The notes under the pieces are model-generated. The model made no database searches. It was not told the origin of the DNA and worked only from the letters and a program-made list of their open reading frames with translations. A program made the translations under genes and the position numbers. A stretch of DNA of 64,000 nt from IMG/VR virus record IMGVR_UViG_3300001200_000009; one strand, written 5' to 3'. Below, one piece after another: positions 3,503 to 64,000 of the stretch (the first letter of the stretch is position 1; each line of letters starts with the position of its first letter). The stretch comes from a virus.

Positions 3503-4033
3503 ATGTATATTTATACGGTCTATAAGACAACAAATCTCATTAACGGCAAAATCTATATTGGAGTCCATAAGACCACCAATCCTGACGACTCGTATTTAGG
3601 TTCTGGGGTAGCTTTACGTAAGGCTATATTAAAATACGGAGTCCATAATTTCTCTAAGAGCATACTTCATGAATATGCTATCGAAGAATCTGCTTATATA
3701 AAAGAGTCAGCTTTAGTAGACAGAGCCTTCATCGCTCGTCGTGACACTTACAATATGAAAGTAGGAGGTATTGGAGGCTCAGGAAATTATGGTAGACCTC
3801 ATTCAGAAGAGCACAAACGAAAAATTTCAGAAGCTCTTAAGGGAAAACCTGGTCCATTTGCTGGTAAAGCATTATCAGAAAGACATAAGAAAAGTTTATC
3901 AGCCGCGAAAAAAGGTAAATCTAACCACTTAAAGGGCTCTACCCAACCTAAGGTTGAATGTCCTCATTGTGGTAAAATTGGTGCAAAAACCGCTATGGGT
4001 AGATGGCATTTCGATAACTGTAAATCGGCCTAA
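3503..4033 (+). mobile_element. free-standing Seg-like GIY-YIG homing endonuclease 1 (NUMOD3 repeats + C-terminal CxxC..H..C)
   Basis: VYKTTNLINGKIYIG, YLGSG, AYIKE, YN, HSEEHKRKIS and CPHCGK..RWHFDNCK. Confidence 0.9.
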
Positions 4034-13575: not shown

Positions 13576-13784
13576 TATTCTATATTCCAATCAACAATTT
13601 GTTTGGCCTGTTTAAGCGACGAGCCGGTGTCAACACCATTACCTAAATCGTCATAAACATTCCAATTGCCAGTATCTTCGGTTTTTTGGATAATCCACCC
13701 TCTATAGATGTATCTACCGTATTCCCCGCCTCTTTTAAGTTTGTGCTCACGAAGAATTTGTTCTGCAGCTTCAGATAAATTCAT
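13575..13784 (-). CDS. hypothetical protein with LSEA..ILRE N-terminus (possible internal head protein)
   Basis: 69-aa ORF with TAATG overlaps on both sides. Confidence 0.6.
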   Translation of the reverse strand: MNLSEAAEQILREHKLKRGGEYGRYIYRGWIIQKTEDTGNWNVYDDLGNGVDTGSSLKQAKQIVDWNIE

Positions 13785-14587
13785 TATATTTTACTCTTAC
13801 AATTATCCATATGATATTTATACATGGCTGGGCCAGAACCTTTCTTAGAACAGTAAGGACATATCACCTTTTTGAAATTCTTTTTCTTACCTTTTTGACA
13901 TCCAACATATACCCCAGGGACTTTCTTTTTACCCTTCATAGCTACTGAAATTTTAGCTTTAGACTCTTCACTATGAGAACTATTGATATTAGCTTTAGCT
14001 TCTTTTATAGCTTTACAATGAGCTTTAGATTTTGTTTTACCACTAAGGGCCTTTGAAATTTTTTGACCTATTTCTTCTGTTTTTCTTTCAGTTCTATTTT
14101 TGTGTACCGCCCTTAGAGATTTTGCCCTATCTTCAATTTGTTTTGAGGTTTTGTTTTTGTTGTATCGCCTTAATCCTTCGGAATGCTTGGTTTTCCATTC
14201 TTCCGATCTGTTCCTTTTTAGGTAGACAGAATTATCTCTCTGAGCGGCATGCAACTTCATTTTAGCTATAGACTTTGGGGTGTGTTTACCCGTAAAGCCT
14301 AATATATTTCCATTTGGGCCTCCCGGAACTAAATTATAATTGTTTTTTTCTAAGCAAAATTCTTTAGTTACAATTTCAGCTTCTTTATCATATGCCTCTT
14401 GTAAAGTGTCAAACTTGTAGAGAATTTTTTTAGAGAAATTACCTTTTCCATACTTCTTTATAGCTTTAGAAATAGCATTTCCGGACCCCATATAACTGTC
14501 TTCAGGATTCTTGGTTTTATGAACTCCTATATAAATTTTGCCGTTTATAGTATTTGTTGTTTCATAGACTGTATAATATGTTTTCAT
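13784..14587 (-). mobile_element. Seg-like GIY-YIG homing endonuclease 2 (the only co-oriented copy)
   Basis: VYETTN..NGKIYIG, YMGSG, AYDKE, YN, NUMOD3-like repeats, CPYC..YHMDNCK; TATAAATA at 14593-14600 is 5 nt before the ATG. Confidence 0.9.
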
Positions 14588-16183: not shown

Positions 16184-16219
16184 AATTTTATCCTTATAAA
16201 TATATTGAGGAGTTCATCT

Positions 16220-16828
16220 ATGTTTATTTATACGGTCTATAAGACAACAAATTTAGTAAACGGCAAAATTTATGTCGGGGTTCACAAAACTAAGAACCCT
16301 AATGACTCGTATTTAGGGTCTGGCAATCAAATCAAACGAGCAATTGAAAAATATGGCGCAGATTCATTCTCTAAAGAAATACTGTTTGAATATGCCGATA
16401 AAGATTTAGCGTATGCTAAAGAGGCTGAAATTGTAAACGAAGAATTTTTATTAAGAGATGACGTGTATAACCTTTGTCATGGTGGTAAAGCATTTAAAGG
16501 GATGTTAGGTAAGACTCATACTGAGGAACACAAACAATATCTCAGAGAATTGTCTACCGGTAAATTACATACCCAAGATGCCAAAGACAAAATGCGACAA
16601 AATGCTTCTAAACATTGGGAAGGTAAGAAATTTACTGAATCCCATAAAAGCAAAATGGCCAAGGCAAAACAAAAACGAGTTGAAATAGACGGAATTGAAT
16701 TTGACTCAATGACTGCTGCTGCCAAGCATTTTAATAGAGGCGGAGCTGCTATCCGATTCTGGATTAAGAAGGGTAGAGGAAAGTTTATCTTGGAAGAAGT
16801 AGATTTTCCCATCCTTTTCCATCTTTAG
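16220..16828 (+). mobile_element. Seg-like GIY-YIG homing endonuclease 3 (NUMOD3 + C-terminal NUMOD1-like HTH)
   Basis: VYKTTNLVNGKIYVG, YLGSG, AYAKE, YN, IDGIEFDS...AAKHF; TATAAATA 16195-16202 and GAGGAG SD. Confidence 0.9.
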
Positions 16829-42960: not shown

Positions 42961-43599
42961 TTATCTGTTACGATTCTTTTGGGCTTCGAGGTCACGCTTT
43001 GCTTCATCAGCTCGAACAGCCTCTTGTAACCACATACGGTCAGCAGCATCTTTGGTTTTCTTAGCGAGCGCGAAGCATTTCTTAATAGTCATGGCTTGGG
43101 CAATTGCATCTGATTCGCCGTCATGTTTAGTGGCGGGTACGACCTTTTCAACAGGCCATTGTTCTAGCATGGTGCGCATGTCGCGAACTTTCCAGAAGAC
43201 GTATGGCGTATGAGCATTCATCGTCTCTTCTAGCATTGAGCGTAAAAGAGTTTCATCAAATGATGAACCATTACCCCAAACTCGACAGCCTTTAGCGGCA
43301 AATTCAGCGTATGTATTGCGGAAAAGTATAGCTCCATCTTCCATCGAATAAGTACCAGATTTCAGATTTTCAAATAGTGCCTGGTCTTCGCGTTCCCAAA
43401 AGGTCTTAGTGCCTTCCGATACATGACGACCTTTAGCTGCTTGTTCGGTCTGGTCTAGCTTAAATTCAGCTGAGGCATATTGTTCAGTTTCGTCTTCGGC
43501 ATCGAAGAAGCACATGCCCAATTGCAAGAGGGCTGCGTTGGTTTGAGTTGACATGGTTTCCCAGTCAATCATCAAATCCGTGTATTTTTTATTCAGCAT
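42961..43599 (-). CDS. dexA: DEDDh 3'-5' exonuclease (DexA-like)
   Basis: MIDWET, VWGNG.SFD, RD.RT and H...DA..QA motifs. Confidence 0.85.
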   Translation of the reverse strand: MLNKKYTDLMIDWETMSTQTNAALLQLGMCFFDAEDETEQYASAEFKLDQTEQAAKGRHVSEGTKTFWEREDQALFENLKSGTYSMEDGAILFRNTYAEFAAKGCRVWGNGSSFDETLLRSMLEETMNAHTPYVFWKVRDMRTMLEQWPVEKVVPATKHDGESDAIAQAMTIKKCFALAKKTKDAADRMWLQEAVRADEAKRDLEAQKNRNR

Positions 43600-44038
43600 T
43601 AATGAGGCTTTCGTTTAATTTTTTCGTGTAGGATTTCGGATAATTTTTCATGATTTGAAGCATTTCAGCCGAGCCAGGGCTAAACTGAAGTACTTTGACT
43701 TCACCATCCTGTCTATGAGCGGCTGCCCAAGTGTGGTGACCATCCATGATTCGATTATCACCAGAAATCATGATGCGTTTGTTACGATAATTGCCTGATT
43801 GGGCCATACCGATAATTTTCTGTTTGTTGAACTCAGCCTGAGTAGGTATTAAGCTCTTTGTTGGAAGAGTTAGCTTCTTAGGCTGTTCGATGAGCCCTTG
43901 CTTCATAGCCCATTTGATAAAGTCTTGTTGGTCTGCTTTGTCGATTTGAGGCATAGCATATCGCTTTTTGCCCTTTGACATGCTCAGATTTGGAATGTCC
44001 ATAAATTCCGAGAACTGCTTAAATGTTAATCGTCCCAC
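43589..44038 (-). CDS. ParB/Srx-like domain protein with capsid-targeting-like N-terminus
   Basis: MPQI, L.PTQ.E, IS.DN.I.DGHH.WAA; N-terminal TFKQFSE. Confidence 0.75.
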   Translation of the reverse strand: MGRLTFKQFSEFMDIPNLSMSKGKKRYAMPQIDKADQQDFIKWAMKQGLIEQPKKLTLPTKSLIPTQAEFNKQKIIGMAQSGNYRNKRIMISGDNRIMDGHHTWAAAHRQDGEVKVLQFSPGSAEMLQIMKNYPKSYTKKLNESLINAE

Positions 44039-46604: not shown

Positions 46605-47333
46605 ATGTATATTATATACCGAACCACCAATAATGTAAACGATAAAATTTATATAGGAGTTCATTTCAGAGTCGAGAATGATGATAAGTATTTAGGCTCT
46701 GGAACTCTCCTTAACAAAGCTATCAAAAAATATGGCCGTAAAAATTTCTCAAGAAAAACATTGTTCGAATTTGAAACTGAAGAAGAAGCTTATCTAAAAG
46801 AAAAAGAAATTGTTAACTCAGAGTTTGTAAAAAGACCTGACACTTATAATCTATGCGAAGGTGGCAAATATAATGGAGTTCCTAGTAAGGAAACTAGAGC
46901 TAAAATGTCTGAATATGCCAGAAACAGACCCAAATCACACAATCTTTCCATATCAGAAACTAAAAAATTATCAGGTTCTGCGCGGGGCAAAAACAACGGA
47001 ATGTACGGTAAATCGCATTCTGAAGAAGCTAAGGCGGCGATGTCCAGAGCTCGCAAGGGGAGAAAGCTCACTAAAAAATGGAAAGAAAATATTAGTAGAG
47101 CGTCTACTGGGCGATATCACTCTGAAGAGACTAAACGACTAATGAAAGAAAATGCGACAAAGCCATGGCTAGGAAAAAACCTTTCTGTGTCTCATAAAGC
47201 CGCGATTTCAAAAGCTCAAACAGGAAAAACACTTATTCGGAAAGAACGAACTTGTCCTCATTGTGGAAAAGTCGGTAAGGGAGGTAACATGGCCAGGTAT
47301 CATTTTAAGAACTGTCATTTGCTGCGAGAATAG
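46605..47333 (+). mobile_element. Seg-like GIY-YIG homing endonuclease 5
   Basis: IYRTTN..N.KIYIG, YLGSG, AYLKE, YN, NUMOD3 repeats, CPHCGK..RYHFKNC; TATAAATA 46551-46558. Confidence 0.9.
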
Positions 47334-49727: not shown

Positions 49728-50354
49728 ATGATTCAATATATTTATAAGACTACTAACTTAATAAACGGCAAAATATATGTCGGAAAACATCAGGCCGAAA
49801 CGCTAGATAATTCCTATTTAGGCTCTGGTGACCTTATCAAAAAGGCTATCAGAAAATACGGAAGAAAATCTTTCAAAAAAGAAATTCTTGAAATTTGTAA
49901 TTCTTCGATTGAAGCCTATGACAGAGAAGCTAAAATAGTTAACGAAGAATTTATCGATAGAACCGATACATACAACTTAAAAATTGGAGGCGAAGGCGGT
50001 TCGGGAATTACTCCATGGAATAAAGGAAAAACACTACCTCAAGAAATGAAAGATAAAATTTCCAAAACATTAACCGGTAGAGTTCAGCCCAAAGAAGAAA
50101 TAGATAGAAGAGCTGCAGCTATGATTGGAAGAACTCATTCAAACGAAACAAAGCTTAAGATGTCTAGAGCTAAGTTAGGAAAAAAATTTACTGAATCACA
50201 TAAAAATAAGTTGTCACTGGCCGCAAAAAATAGAAAATCACATGGAAATCAGGGCAAGAAAAATAAAGTCGTCGAATGTCCTCATTGTAAAGTTAAAGGA
50301 GGGGCAGGAGTTATGAAGAGATGGCATTTTGATAATTGCAAAACTCTTCCTTAA
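49728..50354 (+). mobile_element. Seg-like GIY-YIG homing endonuclease 6
   Basis: IYKTTNLINGKIYVG, YLGSG, AYDRE, YN, PWNKG, CPHC..RWHFDNCK; TATAAATA 4 nt before the ATG. Confidence 0.9.
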
Positions 50355-51292: not shown

Positions 51293-51916
51293 ATGCTTAT
51301 TTATACCGTCTACAGAACTACAAATTTAGTTAATGGAAATATATACATAGGGGTTCACAAAACTTCTGACCCAAACGACTCATATTTAGGTTCAGGTAAA
51401 CTTATTTCTAAGGCTGTTAAAATTTATGGCAGAGAAAATTTCGCAAAAGAAATACTTTTTGAATTTGACAATAAATCAGACGCTTATGCTAAAGAAGCAG
51501 AGCTCGTAACTCCCGATTTTATAAAAGAAAGAACCAATTATAATATAGCTCCTGGCGGCAAAGGAGGAATATTATGGAATTGTGATAATCATCCGACTAA
51601 AGGTAAAAAACACTCTCCTCAAGCGATAAAAAATATGTCCATTGGTTCTATTGGTCAAACATCTGGATTAGAGAATTATCAGTTTAAGGGATATTACAAA
51701 CTTCCTAATTGCGACATTTTGTTTGAAACTTCTGGTAAAGCTGCTGAATATTGTGGTATGGCTTCAAGCAATATTAGAAGAATTTGCAAAGATAAACTAG
51801 ACCTAAAGGTTACACCAGTGTCTTATCGGTCAAACAGATATATAACCTCCTTAGGCAATAAAGAAAATGTCGTCGGTAAAACTCATAGAGAATTAGGATT
51901 TGATTTTAAAATTTAG
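51293..51916 (+). mobile_element. Seg-like GIY-YIG homing endonuclease 7
   Basis: VYRTTNLVNG.IYIG, YLGSG, AYAKE, YN, HTH and GKT..ELGF.F C-terminus; TATAAATA 4 nt before the ATG. Confidence 0.9.
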
Positions 51917-53646: not shown

Positions 53647-53698
53647 TAGGATTTATTCCTTATAAATATAATATCTATTGGTTCATCAAGGAGATGAA

Positions 53699-54412
53699 AT
53701 GTTTATCGTTTACGAAACTACAAATCTTGTTAACAATAAGATTTATATTGGCGTTTCTGGTACTGGGGACCCTAAATATTTAGGGTCCGGTATTGCCTTA
53801 AATAAAGCCTTTAAAAAGTATGGTAAAGAAAATTTTGTTCGTAAAACATTATTTTCATTTGATAACTATCAAGAAGCTTACGCTAAAGAGCAAGAAATAG
53901 TAAATTCAGAATTTATTAGCTCTTCTAATAATTATAATCTTAGAATCGGTGGGCGTGGGGGATTTACCGTTACCAATAAAGCTAAAAAGATGATTTCAAA
54001 TAAACTCACTGGTGTAAAATTTTCCGAAGAAAGAAAGACTAATATCAAAAACGCTATATCTAAATCCGGAATTCATGATAGACTAAGAAATAAAAAGCGC
54101 GATAAACGTATATGCGATAAGATTTCTAATACAAAAAATAAAGGAACTTATTCTCTACCCCTTTACGGTAATTTTTCTTCTTGTTCAAAAGCTGCTAAAG
54201 CTATTGGATGTTCTCCTACATTTGTTTTAAAATATTGCAAATCTGCTAATGCGATACCTTTGACTATTAAAAATCTTAGATTAAAGTCGTCATATTTGGA
54301 TGAAATTTCTAATAGCGACAAATATTCTTTAATAGGTAAAACACCTAAGGAATTGGGATTTGGATTTAGTCTAAACTCGGGTCCCAGCCAAGTTTTTCTC
54401 TCGGCCAGTTGA
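53699..54412 (+). mobile_element. Seg-like GIY-YIG homing endonuclease 8
   Basis: VYETTNLVN.KIYIG, YLGSG, AYAKE, YN, GKT..ELGF.F; TATAAATA 53661-53668; SD inside hairpin TTCATC-AAGGA-GATGAA. Confidence 0.9.
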
Positions 54413-55370
54413 TATTGTATTCAGAGGCTTGTGTGTTGAACAGGTCAGTGAACTTGCCGCCTGTTGTAGACTCATAGAACCAATCAGCAATGGGATTATA
54501 TTTCTTGTGTTCGTCTTCGAAGATTGGCTCGATGCCAAGGCTCTTAAGACAAAAGTCAATACGCGACTTCGAGAAGAGATTTAGTTGGTGAAGAGTAACG
54601 CCGCCCCGGCCCATCGACCCTTTTTCCATAATCATTGCATTGATTTGCATCTCATGTTCAGCGATTATTCTGGCTGCTTCTGTGACTCTTCGATGCACTG
54701 CTGGCAAAGAGCGTCCGTCAAGGTCCATTTCTTCGAGTGTCGTATTATAGAGCCAAATAGTTCCTTCGGTGTGGAGCGTTTCATCAACCAAAGATGAAGA
54801 AATACCGGCATTGATATTTGGAATTTTGTTCTTGCCTTCTGATTGGAAGTGTTTTAAGAACGCGAATGAGCTATAGAGAATAGCGCCTTCGACCATTGAG
54901 AATACTCCCAAGGATGTAAGGATGTCCTCATGATTGATGTACTCGTCGATGAAATCCATACGCGCTTTGAGGATAGGGTCATCCACATAAGACAAATAAA
55001 ATTCTGGAGTAGCAATACCCAGAACCTCATTGATTTTGTTATAGAATGGAGCATGTACGTTTAGCTCGGTGTTACCGAACGCCGATGCCATACGTCTAAT
55101 TTCAGGACGTTGAAAGTCCCGCATAATACGGCCTGTCCAATAGTCTTCTCCAGCAAAGAGTTCGTATGTCGTAAAGAGTCTAAGAACCGTGACGACGCCG
55201 TGATATTCAGCCTCGCTCATATGAACCCTCATATCTTGAATATCGTCTTCAGCGGCTGGCTCATCAGGAGGCCAGATTATGTCTGTTTGCTTCTTTGCGA
55301 ATGCTGACGCTTGAGGGTAAAGGTCCGTGTAGTCACGGGTGGGGGCCATTATTCTTGGGGCTCTATTCAT
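54366..55370 (-). CDS. nrdB: class I ribonucleotide reductase beta subunit
   Basis: W.P.E, E..VH..FY, VEG..LYSSFAFL and DE.LH motifs. Confidence 0.95.
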   Translation of the reverse strand: MNRAPRIMAPTRDYTDLYPQASAFAKKQTDIIWPPDEPAAEDDIQDMRVHMSEAEYHGVVTVLRLFTTYELFAGEDYWTGRIMRDFQRPEIRRMASAFGNTELNVHAPFYNKINEVLGIATPEFYLSYVDDPILKARMDFIDEYINHEDILTSLGVFSMVEGAILYSSFAFLKHFQSEGKNKIPNINAGISSSLVDETLHTEGTIWLYNTTLEEMDLDGRSLPAVHRRVTEAARIIAEHEMQINAMIMEKGSMGRGGVTLHQLNLFSKSRIDFCLKSLGIEPIFEDEHKKYNPIADWFYESTTGGKFTDLFNTQASEYNINWPREKLGWDPSLD

Positions 55371-55408
55371 ATAAATATTTTACCTACTTAAGATTACACA
55401 GGGTTACG

Positions 55409-55966
55409 ATGATTATTCTTTACAAAACGACTAACACCATAAATGGAAAAATTTACATTGGTGTTAGAAAACTAACATCTCGAAAGAGTATTTATTTGGG
55501 CTCTGGAGTAGCTATAAAAAGAGCTATCCAAAAATACGGTAAAGAGAATTTCGTCAGAGAAACTCTCTTCGAATTTGATACAGCTAAAGAAGCTTTCGCT
55601 AAAGAAGCTGAAATAGTTAACGAAGAATTCGTGTCTAGAAAAGACACTTATAATATAGGCCTCGGAGGGCAAGGCGGAGACTTTAGTTCTGGCAGAAAAT
55701 TGTCTGAAGAACATAAAGCTAAAATTTCAAAAAGCCTTACAGGAAGAAAGTTAACTCAAGACCAGAAAACTAAAATCTCCGAATCTATGATTGGACTTCC
55801 ACCGTCAAAGGGGTTTACTGGAATGACTCATTCTGATAAAACATTAAGTAAAATGTCAAAATCAGCTAAAGCACGTAAAAAAATTCAGTGTCCTAACTGT
55901 AAGACTATGACTCCAGTAAATGTAGCTAAGAGATGGCATTTCGATAACTGTAAGGTTATTATATAA
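55409..55966 (+). mobile_element. Seg-like GIY-YIG homing endonuclease 9
   Basis: LYKTTN.INGKIYIG, YLGSG, AFAKE, YN, NUMOD3, CPNC..RWHFDNCK; TATAAATA 55370-55377. Confidence 0.9.
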
Positions 55967-55987: not shown

Positions 55988-56016
55988 AAAAAAATCGAGC
56001 CCGGTAAGACTCGATT
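55988..56016 (-). terminator. intrinsic terminator
   Basis: AATCGAG...CTCGATT hairpin followed by a T-run on the minus strand. Confidence 0.7.
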
Positions 56017-56042: not shown

Positions 56043-56597
56043 CTAAGAGCCGCCGATGCCGTTATCGTCTAAAATATCAAGAATGGCGTGAGCCAATCTT
56101 CTAGCCTGCGGATATTCTCTTTTAAGAACAGAGGAACGACAGAGGTCTTCGATCTCAAGAGCCCAGTTTGGAGAATCGGTATTAGGAGTATAGGTAGGCC
56201 CAGCTTCATCTAAAGACTCTTTCATAGGATTCTGTTCAATTTCGTCTACGTCAAATTCTAAAACGCCCGCAATGACTTCCATATATTTTGGAATGTATTC
56301 GATAAACATTTTAGTGTCAGGGTCTCTTTGATTAGCATGAAGTTTTGTGTGAGAATACATTGCATGCTCGTCAAAGACCTCTGCTGCTTCCTCGCCCAAC
56401 TGCTGTTCAATAGCCATGATAATTTGATCATAGTCTTCTTGGCTATTGATGTCTCTCATAATTTTGTTGAGTTTTTTCGTATAACTATATGCTGTTTGAC
56501 TATCGAAAAAATTTTCGGCCAGCTCTTGAGCTTCTCTAAACTTTGCGGCTTGAGCAGCGAACCCAAACCCCTGCGTCGATTTGATATTACGGTTCAT
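56043..56597 (-). CDS. hypothetical acidic protein
   Basis: ORF with AAGGA SD; contains LAE/MKE/LDE sites. Confidence 0.6.
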   Translation of the reverse strand: MNRNIKSTQGFGFAAQAAKFREAQELAENFFDSQTAYSYTKKLNKIMRDINSQEDYDQIIMAIEQQLGEEAAEVFDEHAMYSHTKLHANQRDPDTKMFIEYIPKYMEVIAGVLEFDVDEIEQNPMKESLDEAGPTYTPNTDSPNWALEIEDLCRSSVLKREYPQARRLAHAILDILDDNGIGGS

Positions 56598-56946
56598 TGG
56601 GTTCTTCCTTATTTTTATGTTCTAGATTCCATTTAATAACCTCTTGGGCGGACTTCCAGCAGATTTCGTGCGACCCAGCTGTTGGAGCCACATAGTATTT
56701 ATTATAGAGGTCTTCGGTGTCTACTTCATCGTTGTCTCTTCCTGATGTGATTTCAAAAATCTGTTCAGGAGTCAGAACAATTGGGTCAGGACATTCGATT
56801 AGACCGTCTGGAATGGTCACATAAACCGTTTCGGTCTTTGTGATGTAGATAGGTTCTGGGTCTTTCTTCTTAAAGATAGAAGCACATCCGCCATTTACAA
56901 GAGCGAACGCTAAAAGACTACTCAGTAGGAGCTTTTTCATTTTCAA
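56587..56946 (-). CDS. o-spanin (Rz1-like) lipoprotein
   Basis: Signal peptide with lipobox-like Cys, Pro-rich IP..LI.CP.P segment; overlaps the i-spanin. Confidence 0.75.
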   Translation of the reverse strand: MKMKKLLLSSLLAFALVNGGCASIFKKKDPEPIYITKTETVYVTIPDGLIECPDPIVLTPEQIFEITSGRDNDEVDTEDLYNKYYVAPTAGSHEICWKSAQEVIKWNLEHKNKEEPNEP

Positions 56947-57358
56947 TCAACAATTGGTTACGTTCGTTCATAATAAGCAAGAATTTTTCAGTACGAGGAG
57001 AGATGTCTCCCGACTCTAGAGTTTCAAGCTCGCGGTCAAGGCTTCCCATAAACCGGATAAGGTCTTGTTTACCTTCTTCGAGGGTTTCTTTTTGGGCAAT
57101 GGCCAATTCAGCTCTTCGTTCGGCTTCATCGGCCCGTTCGTTTGCTGCGGTCAAAGCGCTCTCAAGACCAGTAACATTACATTCAATGACCGCCTTGTTA
57201 TATCCTTCAGTATAGATATTATCTTTGAAGTTGCCGAACCATGCTTTACCTCCAAAGAATAGGCTAAGCGCGATTGCGAGTCCAGCAAATCCTTTCATAA
57301 GGTTAGCGCCTGTAGCGGCTGCCTTGATTCCAGCTTTAATTCCTGCGATTGTAGGCAT
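56918..57358 (-). CDS. i-spanin (Rz-like)
   Basis: N-terminal TM helix followed by a coiled coil; upstream of the lipoprotein. Confidence 0.75.
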   Translation of the reverse strand: MPTIAGIKAGIKAAATGANLMKGFAGLAIALSLFFGGKAWFGNFKDNIYTEGYNKAVIECNVTGLESALTAANERADEAERRAELAIAQKETLEEGKQDLIRFMGSLDRELETLESGDISPRTEKFLLIMNERNQLLIENEKAPTE

Positions 57359-60344: not shown

Positions 60345-60884
60345 TTATCCTAGTGTGCTAATCATGTATCCGGCGCCTACGAAGAACATTCCGCCGATAC
60401 CTGCAACTGTCGCGAGAACTGTTGCTATCTTCTTCCAGTTAATTTTATTTATACCCGTCGATTTGTCCTTTTTCGGAGAATCGCCAATAGCTTTTACAGC
60501 TCCTTGGTCAGGCGGAAGTGGATAAACCTGACCAACTAGGTAATAAACTTCTCCATTTTGCTTGAACGGCATCACACGAAGATGGACGTAAACGATCTTA
60601 TTTGTCTTAGTAATATAACCCTTAAACATGTCATAACCAGATTTGGCTCCACGAAAAACCTCGTCCGCTAGATTCATATCAATTTCTACGTCTGATGGAA
60701 GAGTGATTTCACGAAACTTCATGTCCTGAAGCTCCATCTCATTATACTCAACAATTTTACAGAATGCTGGGTTCGCTCTTTGGAAGCTACCATCTTTGTT
60801 TACGATTGCAAGGCCAGCTAAGCCTTTTTCCCATAGCAGGTCATAGAGACCCTCTTTATGAGCGATTGAAAATTTATTTGTCAT
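60345..60884 (-). CDS. stand-alone PAS/PAC domain protein with C-terminal TM helix
   Basis: GLAIVN.DG.F..AN.AFC.IV.Y...EL....F.EIT.PSD...Y...K.Y..K.....V.LRV; hydrophobic C-terminus. Confidence 0.85.
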   Translation of the reverse strand: MTNKFSIAHKEGLYDLLWEKGLAGLAIVNKDGSFQRANPAFCKIVEYNEMELQDMKFREITLPSDVEIDMNLADEVFRGAKSGYDMFKGYITKTNKIVYVHLRVMPFKQNGEVYYLVGQVYPLPPDQGAVKAIGDSPKKDKSTGINKINWKKIATVLATVAGIGGMFFVGAGYMISTLG

Positions 60885-61674
60885 ATAGTCTGATGTCCTC
60901 TGGCCAACACTTTGATGTTTGCCCATTTGTCTCTAGGACGATAAAGTTAGGACCAAGTTTCACAACAACCGCTTCGTCGATGCTATTCGTGGACACCTTA
61001 TCCCCAATTTTTACCAATTTTTTAGAATAGAAGAGCTCGCGCGCTTCGCTTCTTGTCAATTCAACTTCGTTGGACTTAAGTAGCCCTAATCCTTGGCTTA
61101 CCTGCATGAACATCTTCTTTGAGACCGCGAGGCTAACACTTGACGGGAGTCCGTTCTTAAATTCCTCGAAGTTGTCGGTTTTTACCAGCTCTCTCATCTT
61201 TGACGACGACATACCAGCGATACCTTCAGCTTCAGGGTCTCGTTTGCCAGAACTGACAGCCCTAATAGACTTAAAGTTGTAATCTCTACTGTTGTATTTA
61301 TCAAATATGTTTTGGAAGTAGTCCACCCGGTCCTCACCGGTCACAAGAATTACATTGGCAAATGCATTTTGTAGGGACTGAAGAACAGCGGTTATTGTAC
61401 GAAGGTCAGATTCAACGACATAGTTCTTGTAGCGAGGGAAAATCGATTTCATGAAGGACACCTTGTCCTCATAAGAGAGCGGGTTCTTCTTATTATCTTT
61501 TGTGTGGGTGATATAGATTTTGAAGGGCCAGCCTTGTTTGTTGGCTAGCTGCGCTCCGAAATTGAATACAGCTTCGTGCCCGATGGTTGGAGGATTACAT
61601 CGCCCCCAAAAGAGAACGACCCCGCGGTCGAGGTCTTCTTTAACATAATGCTGAAAGGACTTGTAGGCCTTCAT
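60874..61674 (-). CDS. HIGH-family nucleotidyltransferase (phage 'cytidyltransferase', NMNAT/PPAT-like)
   Basis: GR.NPPTIGH, KNPL...K, G.DR and SG.RDP...GMSSSKMR (KMSKS-like) motifs. Confidence 0.9.
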   Translation of the reverse strand: MKAYKSFQHYVKEDLDRGVVLFWGRCNPPTIGHEAVFNFGAQLANKQGWPFKIYITHTKDNKKNPLSYEDKVSFMKSIFPRYKNYVVESDLRTITAVLQSLQNAFANVILVTGEDRVDYFQNIFDKYNSRDYNFKSIRAVSSGKRDPEAEGIAGMSSSKMRELVKTDNFEEFKNGLPSSVSLAVSKKMFMQVSQGLGLLKSNEVELTRSEARELFYSKKLVKIGDKVSTNSIDEAVVVKLGPNFIVLETNGQTSKCWPEDIRLYDK

Positions 61675-62636
61675 CTTGTGCGGAAATTCCGTTTAACGAG
61701 TTTGAAAGCCGTGTCGCCTTCTCCAACAACAAATCCTTCTCCACCGAATTTGCCATCGAAATATTGAGGAAACTTGCCATCAATAGCTCTTTGAGTTTCT
61801 AAGGCATGAACCATATCGTTCTTGATGCCGTTTAGTGTATTTATAACCATCGTGGCGTTAAGAACTGTAGCTCGTAGCTCGCGCGGAATTGTAGTGTCAG
61901 CGAAGAATTCCTTAGCCATATTGTCGGAAAAATCGACGTTTCGGCAATTAAACGAATACAGCTGCTGACAGAGCGCTCTATTAAAATGAAGTAATGCTAA
62001 TTGCGAGAACTCGATGTTGATAACATCTTGAACTTCTTTTAGCCTGTCTCTGATGGATGATGGAGCTCTTGCCTGTTCGAGCGTTATCTTTTCCTGACCT
62101 TGCCACCACAAAGCATGATTATTTCTCAGTCGATTTATAGGGCCTGAATGGATAACTATACCAAGACTCTGAAAAACAGTTGAGGGTATGTGATATTCGA
62201 CGAGGTTTGGTTTGACTATTCGGGTCTTTATATGAGAGTTTCGTGATTGTTCTTCAGGCAACCAAAGGACATCCGCTTCAAATTGAACCTCGATAAGACC
62301 ATCGGTCGATTCTTCAAGGACATCCCAAGCTTTTGCCATCATTTCGGCGTATTGAATTTGAGAGTCTGTCTGCTTACGACGGAGAATGGTTTCTTTGATG
62401 TGTTCTCTTGACTTGGCCTTGCCGTCATAAGTTTTCGCTCTGAACCGATTTTTGTCATTGAACATAAATTGCCCAAGATGGTCTCTTGCAAAGGTAATCG
62501 ACGGAGACCCATCGAATTTTGTAGTGGTTGCCATCATGCCAGTAGACACGTGCAATAGGTCATCAATAGCCTTCAAGGCCGCTTGAGGACCTTTTCGAAT
62601 GATTATGTCTTCAAAGTGCTCCATAAAGGTCCTCAT
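61671..62636 (-). CDS. ATP-dependent ligase-fold nucleotidyltransferase (DUF6267-like)
   Basis: Motif I TKFDG, motif III-like FEADV, motif IV GEGFVV, motif V FKLVK; N-terminal EH.ED. Confidence 0.75.
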   Translation of the reverse strand: MRTFMEHFEDIIIRKGPQAALKAIDDLLHVSTGMMATTTKFDGSPSITFARDHLGQFMFNDKNRFRAKTYDGKAKSREHIKETILRRKQTDSQIQYAEMMAKAWDVLEESTDGLIEVQFEADVLWLPEEQSRNSHIKTRIVKPNLVEYHIPSTVFQSLGIVIHSGPINRLRNNHALWWQGQEKITLEQARAPSSIRDRLKEVQDVINIEFSQLALLHFNRALCQQLYSFNCRNVDFSDNMAKEFFADTTIPRELRATVLNATMVINTLNGIKNDMVHALETQRAIDGKFPQYFDGKFGGEGFVVGEGDTAFKLVKRNFRTR

Positions 62637-63375
62637 ACCATTTGAATTCTATCGGGCTGATGTGTTGAGTTTCTTTGCGTTCTCGAAACTTGCGAATAAT
62701 TTCTGGAATGCGGGGCGAATAACGATTTCTTACGCTCCAAAAAATAGACTCAAAACTGTCGACGTCGATTCCATACTCGACTAATATTCTTTCAGCGGAT
62801 AGAGGCCTATCTCTCAAAAAAGGAGTATTGACCCATTTTTTTGTATAGCCTTTTCCGTCTTTACGCGGCTGAAGTTCTCTTTTTATTGCAACTAACCCAT
62901 ATTTTGGAGAAAACGACAATGACATATATCTTACCAATACACCGTTGTCATGCTCTTGGAAAGTCTTTTGAATGCACCCAAAAACAATCATTGCCAATAT
63001 AGTTCTCATTTCACCGGAATAACGACTATGTTTGGGCGCATGATAGAAAAGTTTGGCGGCCTCAATGTTTTCGCATTTCATGAAGTCAACTTGGACGTGA
63101 TGAGTGATTGAGTTTTCTGGTGTATAGGGCCAAGCTGATGATAAGACGTTTGCGACCAAAGCATTTGGCATTTGAATATCTTCGATAATTCTTTTACAAA
63201 TATGCTCGAATTCTTCTGGAGTTACAGCGATGTCAATATCGCCAGACATATCCTTCTTACCGGCCGAGCCTAGTAATCTGTCTGAAAAATCTATTCCAAG
63301 ATTTCGATTCAGATTTTCTAGCACTAAGGGAATATTGGCCGAATGGATTGGCGAGCAGTTCATTGATTTGGTCAT
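62611..63375 (-). CDS. Pol-beta superfamily nucleotidyltransferase
   Basis: LLGS.GKK..SGDIDIAV and third aspartate in VQVDFM. Confidence 0.85.
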   Translation of the reverse strand: MTKSMNCSPIHSANIPLVLENLNRNLGIDFSDRLLGSAGKKDMSGDIDIAVTPEEFEHICKRIIEDIQMPNALVANVLSSAWPYTPENSITHHVQVDFMKCENIEAAKLFYHAPKHSRYSGEMRTILAMIVFGCIQKTFQEHDNGVLVRYMSLSFSPKYGLVAIKRELQPRKDGKGYTKKWVNTPFLRDRPLSAERILVEYGIDVDSFESIFWSVRNRYSPRIPEIIRKFRERKETQHISPIEFKWYEDLYGAL

Positions 63376-64000
63376 AATTTAATCTTCACTCCAACTCGAG
63401 TCGAGACGCCGTTTGGACCACCATAAGTCCGTAATGAAAACGACTTGAGCTCAGGAAATTGGCCCATCTCGATTAGGTTCTTATCTAGACCAGTGTGATA
63501 GCAAGAGAAATCTTCTTGGTTACGGTCATACACAACGAAATAGTTGTCATTTGACTCGCACAGGTGGTCGAGAATAATTGTTCTTATTTGAGACAATATA
63601 TCATAGTCCGTGACGTTTGTAAACTGAAAAGGCATTTTTCCGCTCTTACAGACACCTTCATCTCCCGCAAATCCGATACACGGGTCTTCGTTTCGATAAA
63701 AGTCTACTAGCTCCACGAAGCCAGCTCCAGGCATTATTAGATTTGCCGCCTGGTCAAATATTTTGGGGCATTGGGTTCGATTAACACTCTTATCGAACAG
63801 TGTTATCGGTGCGCCTAAAGAGGCTGCTCCTTTAATTTCAAACTGAGTTCTAGCGTCTGCAATATCTACCACCAAATCTGGGTCTTGTGACCCTGGCTTT
63901 GCGATAGATATTAGACTTGCATTAAACTCAGACTCGGTCCAATCGAATACCTTCTCTTGGGCTATTTTGCCGTGATTGACTCTGCCTTGTAAATTTCCGC
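63372..64000 (-). CDS. PD-(D/E)xK nuclease-like protein (5' end outside window)
   Basis: Frame stays open to the window edge: GNLQGRVNHGKIAQEKVF...PGSQDPDLVV...QFEIKG. Confidence 0.65.
   Translation of the reverse strand, partial: GNLQGRVNHGKIAQEKVFDWTESEFNASLISIAKPGSQDPDLVVDIADARTQFEIKGAASLGAPITLFDKSVNRTQCPKIFDQAANLIMPGAGFVELVDFYRNEDPCIGFAGDEGVCKSGKMPFQFTNVTDYDILSQIRTIILDHLCESNDNYFVVYDRNQEDFSCYHTGLDKNLIEMGQFPELKSFSLRTYGGPNGVSTRVGVKIKL

Follow-up and report, generated by a model that had tools for sequence, protein, structure and literature searches.

A putative late operon of a T4-like phage joins a restriction-like nuclease to three transferases: a possible DNA repair kit with modular parts

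What task brings three transferases and a restriction-like nuclease together in one phage operon is the question raised by the window, a 64,000-nt stretch of DNA whose source is a T4-like myophage. A sequence-only reading had described five minus-strand genes joined by ATGA stop/start overlaps, and a check of open reading frames and overlaps bears this out: five minus-strand ORFs lie at 60345..64000, with ATGA at 63372-63375 and at 61671-61674. The features of the region are the following.

63372..64000, minus strand: PD-(D/E)xK nuclease gene (ORF 63372-63998), 5' end outside the window
62611..63375, minus strand: Pol-beta nucleotidyltransferase, minimal and PolX-like (254 aa)
61671..62624, minus strand: DUF6267 protein with a putative ligase-superfamily fold; likely start 62624, 62636 possible
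61838..61845, minus strand: T4-type late promoter motif TATAAATA, within the DUF6267 gene and ~165 nt upstream of the HIGH gene
60874..61674, minus strand: HIGH-superfamily, NMNAT-like transferase with a small C-terminal domain
60345..60884, minus strand: PAS protein with a C-terminal membrane anchor (first-pass ORF 60345-60926)
60446..60453, minus strand: late promoter motif within the PAS gene, 5' of subsequent late genes

Two further overlaps had been described. The one of 26 nt holds with the first ATG of DUF6267 at 62636 and shortens to 14 nt with the likelier second in-frame ATG at 62624, which has GAGG 5' of it and fits the 317-aa gene call P0001. The one of 11 nt stands if the PAS gene starts at 60884. 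The operon runs beyond the PAS gene as far as ~56043, and the five genes are therefore not a closed unit. The T4-type late promoter motif occurs in 25 copies in the window (4.4 expected), and late expression of the operon is supported by these motifs. The fold assignments made from the sequence are supported, and the catalytic residues are kept across alignments of the Pol-beta, DUF6267, HIGH and nuclease families.

The Pol-beta protein has the GS, DxD and third Asp of its superfamily (G36, S37, D46, D48 and D97 are present in 53/53 alignment rows), and its Atlas model aligns with an NTP_transf_2 cluster at TM 0.69. It matches no Pfam or PHROG family. Compared with clade profiles built from fetched genomes, the family profile reaches a probability of 63.9% with PolX (E 6.6e-5, 68 columns covering all three Asp), as against 20.6% with MNT, 0.5% with CCA, 0.2% with RlaP and 0.05% with SMODS, the SMODS profile being a thin one of 3 rows. 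Control comparisons gave 27% for PolX with MNT and 85% for MNT with RlaP. The palm thus appears nearest to that of family X DNA polymerases, with a local match that is moderate, and the protein was rejected as an RlaP or CCA enzyme at the similarities just given. PF14792 matches weakly in 3/53 family members, and the PolX thumb and helix M/N give an alignment of low confidence, and that only when the threshold is switched off. The GS lies at residues 36-37, and the N-terminal 8-kDa lyase/HhH part is absent. Gap filling is the predicted function of the protein. A scan of prokaryote genomes with a 4-row Pol-beta alignment returned a single locus, which lies on a phage-like contig of a MAG. A literature search for a phage family X DNA polymerase with virion and ligase found none.

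The DUF6267 gene matches Pfam PF19782 (E 2e-15), and ligase motifs I, III, IV and V are conserved in its family. Motif I (K36/D38/G39), motif IV (E296/G297) and motif V (K308, with R312) are kept in 60/60 members and D118 of motif III in 59/60. The family has features of its own as well, namely an N-terminal HxED motif whose H and E are near-invariant (59/60), an invariant His at motif IIIa, an Asp in motif III, and an invariant Lys within a long helical insert. The protein ends ~5 residues past motif V, and the C-terminal OB domain is absent. It is RNA ligases, not DNA ligases, that typically lack an OB domain, and EG in motif IV is the form found in ATP-dependent ligases. A model made from family alignment A4 reached pLDDT 91 and pTM 0.87 (pLDDT 35 from the single sequence). 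Its best VIA match is the nick-sealing RNA ligase 5cot (Z 6.6, 166 residues aligned, rmsd 4.1), its top fold neighbours include NgrRnl, Rnl2, REL1 and Rnl1, and among the VIA matches listed all those that align more than 130 residues are DNA or RNA ligases. VIA Z scores are all below 8 with helical bundles interleaved among the matches, and a Foldseek search of the PDB gave nothing at E <0.001 (best E 0.24, Rnl1). By profile, the family shows no family-level similarity to Rnl2/Rnl5 (0.4%; 11 rows), ATP DNA ligases (1.6%; 7 rows) or NAD DNA ligases (0.05%; 16 rows), with controls among the ligases at 36-93%, and PDB sequence searches with alignments A4 and A5 gave no meaningful match. The modelled fold weakly resembles OB-less ligases. 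No literature naming DUF6267 was found; supplements and family tables may list it.

The HIGH protein matches CTP_transf_like (E 5e-7) and has both superfamily motifs, (H/T)xGH and SxS/TxxR, with G24, R25, G32, H33, S156 and R161 in 51/51 members. It belongs to the cyanophage 'cytidyltransferase' family, of which 563 phage records were found. The most specific NCBIfam matches in the family are NadD (14/51 members), NadR (12) and NadM-type, with a best E of ~1e-8; the protein of the window itself matches 0 NCBIfam families. Scores are weak, and among PDB sequences PPAT is as near as NMNAT. From its sequence relatives, the protein may be described as NMNAT-like. A search under the name 'cytitidyltransferase' found no literature, and in the literature consulted the identification of the gene as an NMNAT is a guess.

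The window holds the 3' 208 codons of the 325-aa nuclease (P0040), which is encoded in full on a 159,499-bp contig. Its PD...(D/E)xK residues D158, E171 and K173 are invariant in 17/17 aligned members. It matches no Pfam or PHROG family; its feature neighbours in the Atlas are the R.HinP1I, SmaI and ThaI families at 0.91-0.92, which serves as a lead only. The N-terminal ~110 aa have no family assignment, and Pfam detects no sensor domain in the 17 family members. DUF6267 is the next gene in 18/37 loci of nuclease relatives, and Pol-beta is near them in 0/37. The slot upstream of DUF6267, occupied here by the nuclease, is variable among relatives. Pfam identified no nuclease family among 34 genes upstream of DUF6267, and some genes in the slot are clearly not nucleases (AOX, HD). 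PD-(D/E)xK motifs in these genes were read by eye, and none was seen in cluster c37, which fills the slot in 9/57.

The proposal that the transferases co-occur was borne out in a survey of phages, with fusions of DUF6267 to either partner. DUF6267 lies within 6 kb in 66/80 Pol-beta loci (13/16 after 70% dereplication) and in 55/67 HIGH loci with >2 kb upstream (37/44 dereplicated). Pol-beta and DUF6267 are fused in loci L116 and L118 and combined in an Atlas cluster of 525 members, Pol-beta is also fused to HIGH in the Atlas, and DUF6267-HIGH fusions are found in BFVD and phrog_455. Adjacency is retained at ~20-30% identity. In jumbo-type phages, the PolX-like protein is the usual neighbour or fusion partner of DUF6267. 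DUF6267 relatives number 466 phage records, nearly all from marine cyanophages.

All three transferases together are rare. Pol-beta is absent from S-CAM9, C48C1, Syn9, S-CREM2, RaK2 and three complete IMG/VR genomes; RaK2 has HIGH alone of the three, and Lak-B2 has Pol-beta, with HIGH and DUF6267 not seen. HIGH lies ~60 and ~108 kb from Pol-beta in PA5oct and Phosso, and DUF6267 and an annotated cytidylyltransferase are ~65 kb apart in S-CREM2. The operon of the closest syntenic relative, L166, reads nuclease-HIGH-PAS, with Pol-beta and DUF6267 missing. L166 also has a separate gene that looks Rnl1-like by eye. The single pathway first suggested for the three enzymes, if it means an obligate one, was abandoned on these grounds. 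Because linkage is pairwise and the parts occur apart, the four-gene set is a cassette of modular parts rather than a pathway of three obligate steps.

Part of the system had been proposed to be injected with the DNA. N-termini resembling the T4 head-targeting peptide begin 57/81 HIGH proteins and 31/51 cyanophage-type DUF6267 proteins, compared with 0/32 helicases and 0/39 primases. Many unrelated neighbour genes show similar N-termini. The HIGH protein of the window has the F..Y..E core, and no such start was seen on its Pol-beta protein. Virion MS is positive for HIGH relatives, a PA5oct Pol-beta homolog is annotated as detected by virion MS, and two papers report NMNAT-like proteins from the virions of cyanophages (PMC9602691, PMC10665884). 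Two DUF6267 relatives are negative, one in PA5oct (no MS note) and the other S-CREM2 gp87 (missing from the virion table). Packaging of HIGH is likely; packaging of DUF6267 was not seen. The idea that this DUF6267 carries a separate capsid tag that can be cleaved off was rejected, since the supposed tag overlaps the conserved H and E of the family (59/60) and the likelier start at 62624 drops its leading residues.

The explanation tentatively preferred, which falls a little short of an even chance, is a late, possibly partly head-packaged kit for cut-fill-seal DNA repair with modular parts. Direct support comes from the folds and motifs, the conserved active-site residues, the adjacency and fusions, and the late-promoter motifs. 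DUF6267 would self-adenylate its motif I lysine and then seal nicks, the use of ATP being suggested because motif IV reads EG; the nucleic acid in which it seals breaks would probably be DNA. The PolX-like protein would fill short gaps before sealing and hold the DNA; DUF6267 has no OB clamp and would therefore need a partner. Ends would be made or trimmed by the swappable nuclease, whose target might instead be the DNA of the host or of a rival. Early in infection, HIGH would probably provide NAD+ or a related dinucleotide, and its coupling to the others may go no further than shared packaging. A bolder version, doubtful though with an appreciable chance, takes DUF6267 for a branch of the ligase superfamily that has gone unrecognised, present in most T4-like cyanophages of the sea and in many jumbo phages. 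It would be the hub of a machine for end processing that is injected into the host and to which the swappable nuclease, the mini-PolX and the NMNAT-like enzyme are plugged in as partners. Such a machine would protect the genome on entry from cuts by restriction or CRISPR systems or reseal it, or would transfer nucleotides to a substrate new to this fold.

The repair kit has to be weighed against accounts that link the genes differently or leave them unlinked. That there is no shared pathway, only independent late head-cargo genes with common late promoters and a common packaging route, is unlikely. Each enzyme does stand alone in some complete genome, the genes are far apart in PA5oct, Phosso and S-CREM2, and many unrelated neighbours have similar N-termini; the recurrent fusions (Pol-beta with DUF6267, DUF6267 with HIGH, Pol-beta with HIGH) and the adjacency that persists in distant relatives argue otherwise. 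RNA repair against tRNA-cutting defences, with DUF6267 as an RNA ligase and Pol-beta restoring lost nucleotides (the role predicted for RlaP), has a small chance. It draws on the OB-less form and RNA-ligase fold neighbours of DUF6267 and on jumbo phages that are reported to pair RNA ligases with RlaP/CCA nucleotidyltransferases (PMC7824862). The Pol-beta profile points away from RlaP and CCA and towards PolX (64%), which also counts against the RNA end-healing role proposed earlier. Moreover, no Pnk, 2H or HAD gene is prominent in the flanking maps, where clusters were not annotated by family, and L166 encodes its Rnl1-like gene as a distinct one.

It is quite unlikely that the transferases serve to AMPylate host targets as the phage enters, or that they hold a packaged nuclease inactive in the style of an MNT antitoxin. 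The distance of the DUF6267 profile from true ligases, MNT as the second-best Pol-beta match and the variable nuclease slot would suit nucleotidylation of this kind; elsewhere Pol-beta is unlinked to the nuclease family (0/37), and L166 retains the nuclease without Pol-beta and DUF6267. An NAD-centred role, in which HIGH remakes NAD+ from NMN, either to counter defences that deplete it or to provide it to DUF6267 as an NAD-using ligase, is improbable. The leading NadD, NadR and NadM-type matches and the virion reports of NMNAT-like proteins favour it, and NAD resynthesis, raised in the first reading, could explain HIGH alone. It leaves Pol-beta and the nuclease unexplained; HIGH scores are weak with PPAT equally near, a NAPRTase/NadV-family partner gene is present in only 1/5 related genomes, and DUF6267 has EG in motif IV with no NAD-ligase profile match. 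A CBASS-like messenger made by the nucleotidyltransferase to activate the nuclease, also suggested at the outset, is highly improbable. The two genes adjoin, and the nuclease has its unassigned N-terminal region; the 3-row SMODS profile gives nil similarity, Pfam finds no sensor domain in the 17 nuclease members, and nuclease relatives are without Pol-beta nearby in 37/37 loci.

The DNA repair reading has viral parallels. The repair set of African swine fever virus includes Pol X, a minimal family X polymerase of palm and thumb that also lacks the N-terminal lyase/HhH domains; it works with an OB-bearing classical ligase and an AP endonuclease, and has no HIGH partner. PgVPolX of Phaeocystis globosa virus 16T is a precedent for a viral PolX core joined to a ligase for fill-and-seal repair (PMC5537341); the pair discussed here is likewise fused in phage relatives (L116, L118). 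In PgVPolX there is lyase activity, and the ligase domain is that of an NAD+-dependent DNA ligase, whereas the PolX-like protein here lacks the N-terminal region and its partner is an OB-less DUF6267 with no NAD-ligase profile match. DUF6267 shares motifs I, III, IV and V and the missing OB domain with NgrRnl/Rnl5 (5cot), T4 Rnl2 (2hvq, 1s68), REL1 (1xdn) and T4 Rnl1, but Z is only 5.3-6.6, and the HxED, motif IIIa His, motif III Asp and helical insert set it apart. Jumbo phages are also reported to place a Pol-beta nucleotidyltransferase (RlaP) beside an RNA ligase (PMC7824862); the Pol-beta protein here is not RlaP by profile, and DUF6267 is neither Rnl1 nor Rnl2. The HIGH protein belongs to the NMNAT-like core gene family of cyanophages (phrog_395, phrog_3041). 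Phage NadM/NadR are reported together with NadV (PMC9503650), whereas the HIGH family is mostly without NadV and linked to DUF6267 instead.

If a role in repair or counter-defence were assigned, it would account for genes that are near-core in very abundant viruses of the ocean, and DUF6267 and Pol-beta could turn out to provide a new OB-less ligase and a minimal polymerase. The operon is rare in having nuclease, Pol-beta, DUF6267 and HIGH in one genome, and with all four parts in a single operon it is therefore a good target for reconstitution.

The PAS protein, first listed as a component of the system, is probably a lineage-specific neighbour outside the module and would be a bystander in DNA repair. 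Its gene matches PAS_9 at E 2e-5, under the cut-off, and queries with the single protein found no homologs, either among phage records or by a scan of viruses. Among all phage loci searched there is one homolog, on which ground a role as sensor of the module was rejected; it is a 181-aa protein in L166. The PAS protein of the window has a single C-terminal hydrophobic stretch at residues 167-185, with a mean hydropathy of 1.95.

The module is real, widespread and apparently uncharacterised; a modular cassette of late genes, its hub being DUF6267, fits the data best. DUF6267 would be paired with a swappable nuclease and a HIGH protein in cyanophage-type genomes and with a mini-PolX in jumbo-type genomes, all of them coming together in the window. 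The five ORFs, both ATGA overlaps and the motifs claimed by the sequence-only reading were all found in the window. The five genes, a spanin-like pair downstream of them and a distant small domain have these positions.

63372-64000, minus strand: nuclease
62611-63375, minus strand: Pol-beta protein
61671-62624, minus strand: DUF6267, probably starting at 62624 (GAGG upstream; database call of 317 aa)
60874-61674, minus strand: HIGH protein
60345-60884, minus strand: PAS protein, probably starting at 60884
56587-57358, minus strand: spanin-like overlapping pair (membrane-anchored protein and lipoprotein with Cys after the signal peptide), also in L166
43589-44038, minus strand: small domain matching the C-terminal portion of phrog_3041, a long cytidyltransferase profile (E 3e-8)

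The gene content is that of a T4-like myophage (terminase, neck, baseplate, tail tube, SSB, helicase loader, late transcription regulator and aerobic RNR), and a sequence collection assigns the window proteins to a 159,499-bp contig. T4 late-promoter motifs number 25 against 4.4 expected, two of them within the five-gene region. Beyond PAS the operon continues with acidic late genes, DUF7207 and the spanin-like pair, as far as a hairpin near 56000 that resembles a terminator.

Among the best 80 of at least 588 confirmed HIGH-anchored loci, DUF6267 lies within 6 kb of HIGH in 62 (55 of the 67 with more than 2 kb upstream) and Pol-beta is near HIGH in one. Of the best 80 of 225 Pol-beta-anchored loci, 66 include DUF6267 and seven a distant HIGH clade, none having both; seven have neither partner, five of these being cut close to the gene. 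One viral locus (L016) seems to carry all three transferases, with ligase motifs III-V visible by eye in its truncated first ORF. The obligate three-enzyme pathway proposed earlier is not supported, as single parts occur alone or far apart in other phages and the operon of L166, the closest syntenic relative, lacks Pol-beta and DUF6267. L166 is the most telling point against such a pathway: its operon matches the window in nuclease, HIGH, PAS and downstream genes, a 128-aa basic gene sits where the window has Pol-beta and DUF6267, and neither of these turned up on its 58-kb, 35%-complete contig. Pol-beta was likewise not found in S-CAM9, C48C1, Syn9, S-CREM2, RaK2 or three complete IMG/VR genomes, in searches that divergent copies can escape; by the same searches Lak-B2 has Pol-beta only and RaK2 HIGH only. 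The DUF6267 family alignment A4, for instance, missed the PA5oct and Phosso proteins. Both of these phages have all three genes, with HIGH distant, and their DUF6267-like rows sit in the query alignment.

The nuclease residues D158, E171 and K173 are conserved in 17 full-length relatives. DUF6267 immediately follows the nuclease in 18 of 37 viral loci and is at most two genes away in 21; dereplication at 70% leaves 16 loci, with 8 and 9 such cases respectively. Pol-beta is in none of the 37. The position directly upstream of DUF6267 is a variable slot, occupied in 57 cyanophage-type loci by 17 clusters and 13 singletons. Many of these genes show PD-(D/E)xK-like motifs by eye, and Pfam assigned none of 34 as a nuclease. 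Since the nuclease also has relatives away from the module (L179, L187-L189, L194, L200 and L202), where a homing-endonuclease-like ORF follows them in the vicinity of an RNase H-like gene, the nuclease may be mobile.

Fill-and-seal on DNA is tentatively the most economical account of a PolX, a ligase fold and a nuclease, an account in which the chemistry of the ligase, the substrate and what HIGH does are inferred. Viral PolX-ligase repair has a precedent in PgVPolX (PMC5537341), and the module would be a new form of viral polymerase-ligase repair set, not a proven new pathway. The Pol-beta protein has no match in Pfam or PHROG; by tblastn, 21 phage records (the PA5oct group, Phosso and Lak) contain relatives, and G36, S37, D46, D48 and D97 are invariant among 53 aligned relatives. 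Against clade profiles from Planctomycetota genomes (28 PolX, 19 MNT, 24 CCA, 18 RlaP and 3 SMODS rows), hhalign gave PolX 63.9%, MNT 20.6%, CCA 0.5%, RlaP 0.2% and SMODS 0.05%, the last from only three rows. Because it matches PolX across the palm (thumb alignment is weak), the protein is by sequence a putative minimal PolX-like enzyme. CBASS-like signalling by the module is most improbable. DUF6267 has a predicted divergent ligase-superfamily fold: across 60 rows motifs I, III, IV and V vary little or not at all, the family-specific H3/E5/D6, Y144, H159 and K268 are conserved as well, and the confident model (pLDDT 91) is without an OB domain. The structure search ranked 5cot first (Z 6.6), with LigIV, Rnl2, LigIII and REL1 at Z 5.3-5.7; helical bundles are interleaved with these ligases, the ligase signal is weak and the best Foldseek E is 0.24. 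RNA repair by the module is unlikely. Membership in a named ligase family was rejected, as similarity to NAD-, ATP- and RNA-ligase profiles is at most 1.6% vs 36-93% among those sets themselves.

That the genes are co-located cargo without a shared pathway is somewhat unlikely. Fusions join Pol-beta to DUF6267 (L116, L118 and a 525-member Atlas cluster), Pol-beta to HIGH (a 52-member cluster) and DUF6267 to HIGH (BFVD, phrog_455). The HIGH protein falls within the 'cytidyltransferase' family of cyanophages (phrog_395/3041), present in 563 phage records. Its most specific curated matches, with weak scores, are NMN/NaMN adenylyltransferases, and PPAT is as near among PDB entries; a NadV-family partner gene is present in one of five genomes examined. 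A NAD-centred system is very unlikely, and nucleotidylation of proteins quite unlikely. Relatives of the small domain at 43589-44038 adjoin HIGH genes in six loci, and the domain may be a detached piece of the HIGH system. A small, very basic ORF often lies directly upstream of HIGH (e.g. L005:7636-8007 and L166:8927-9313) and is missing from the window.

Several further arrangements of PolX-like genes were seen. Phosso has a second PolX-like paralog at 118305-119132, distant from the ligase-linked copy, and a 57-member Atlas cluster of 600 aa joins a fold like the window Pol-beta protein to a PDDEXK_1 nuclease. In L137, L141, L142, L149, L157, L158 and L160 the gene just upstream of the PolX-like one belongs to a separate NadM-like HIGH clade whose members carry 800-1400-aa extensions; no DUF6267 is near.

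A head-targeting pattern modelled on T4 peptides, counted on proteins other than the window's own, occurs in 57 of 81 HIGH proteins; among DUF6267 proteins it fits 31 of 51 of the cyanophage type and 7 of 30 of the jumbo type. Against this stand 1 match in 37 Pol-beta proteins, 1 in 21 exonucleases and none in 32 helicases or 39 primases. The window HIGH N-terminus aligns with the family core F..Y..E. Many Pol-beta relatives start after an LxE-like site, but the window protein does not. The capsid tag suggested for the window DUF6267 consists of the conserved HxED, so cleavage after it would remove conserved residues, and the suggestion is abandoned. Parts of two papers report HIGH-type proteins from cyanophage virions, with NAD synthesis as a guess (PMC9602691, PMC10665884), and the S-SCSM2R virion proteins named in part of another include no NMNAT (PMC12801897). 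DUF6267 relatives are not listed among virion proteins of PA5oct or S-CREM2. The annotation of the PA5oct Pol-beta homolog records its detection in virions by ESI-MS/MS, and a word search of the main text of the PA5oct paper did not find it named (PMC7318152).

The PAS protein, earlier counted as part of the module, is lineage-specific and has no link to it: the only homolog among viral loci L001-L202 is in L166 (L166:10106-10651, E 8e-47), and phage records gave none. It has a C-terminal membrane anchor and belongs to a late operon, with the spanin-like pair a few genes further on; late operons of other phages encode a coiled-coil protein that likewise ends in a membrane anchor. Speculatively, the PAS protein may have a sensing, lysis-related role.

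Homing endonuclease genes are found elsewhere in the window, at least six of them matching phrog_314.

3503-4033: phrog_314 homing endonuclease
13784-14587: phrog_314 homing endonuclease
16205-16828: phrog_314 homing endonuclease
46605-47333: phrog_314 homing endonuclease
49728-50354: phrog_314 homing endonuclease
51293-51916: phrog_314 homing endonuclease
53678-54412: GIY-YIG-like ORF (by eye), one of two around nrdA/nrdB
55295-55966: GIY-YIG-like ORF (by eye), the other of the two

Most homing endonuclease genes run antisense to the adjacent genes, and several come with a late-promoter motif of their own.
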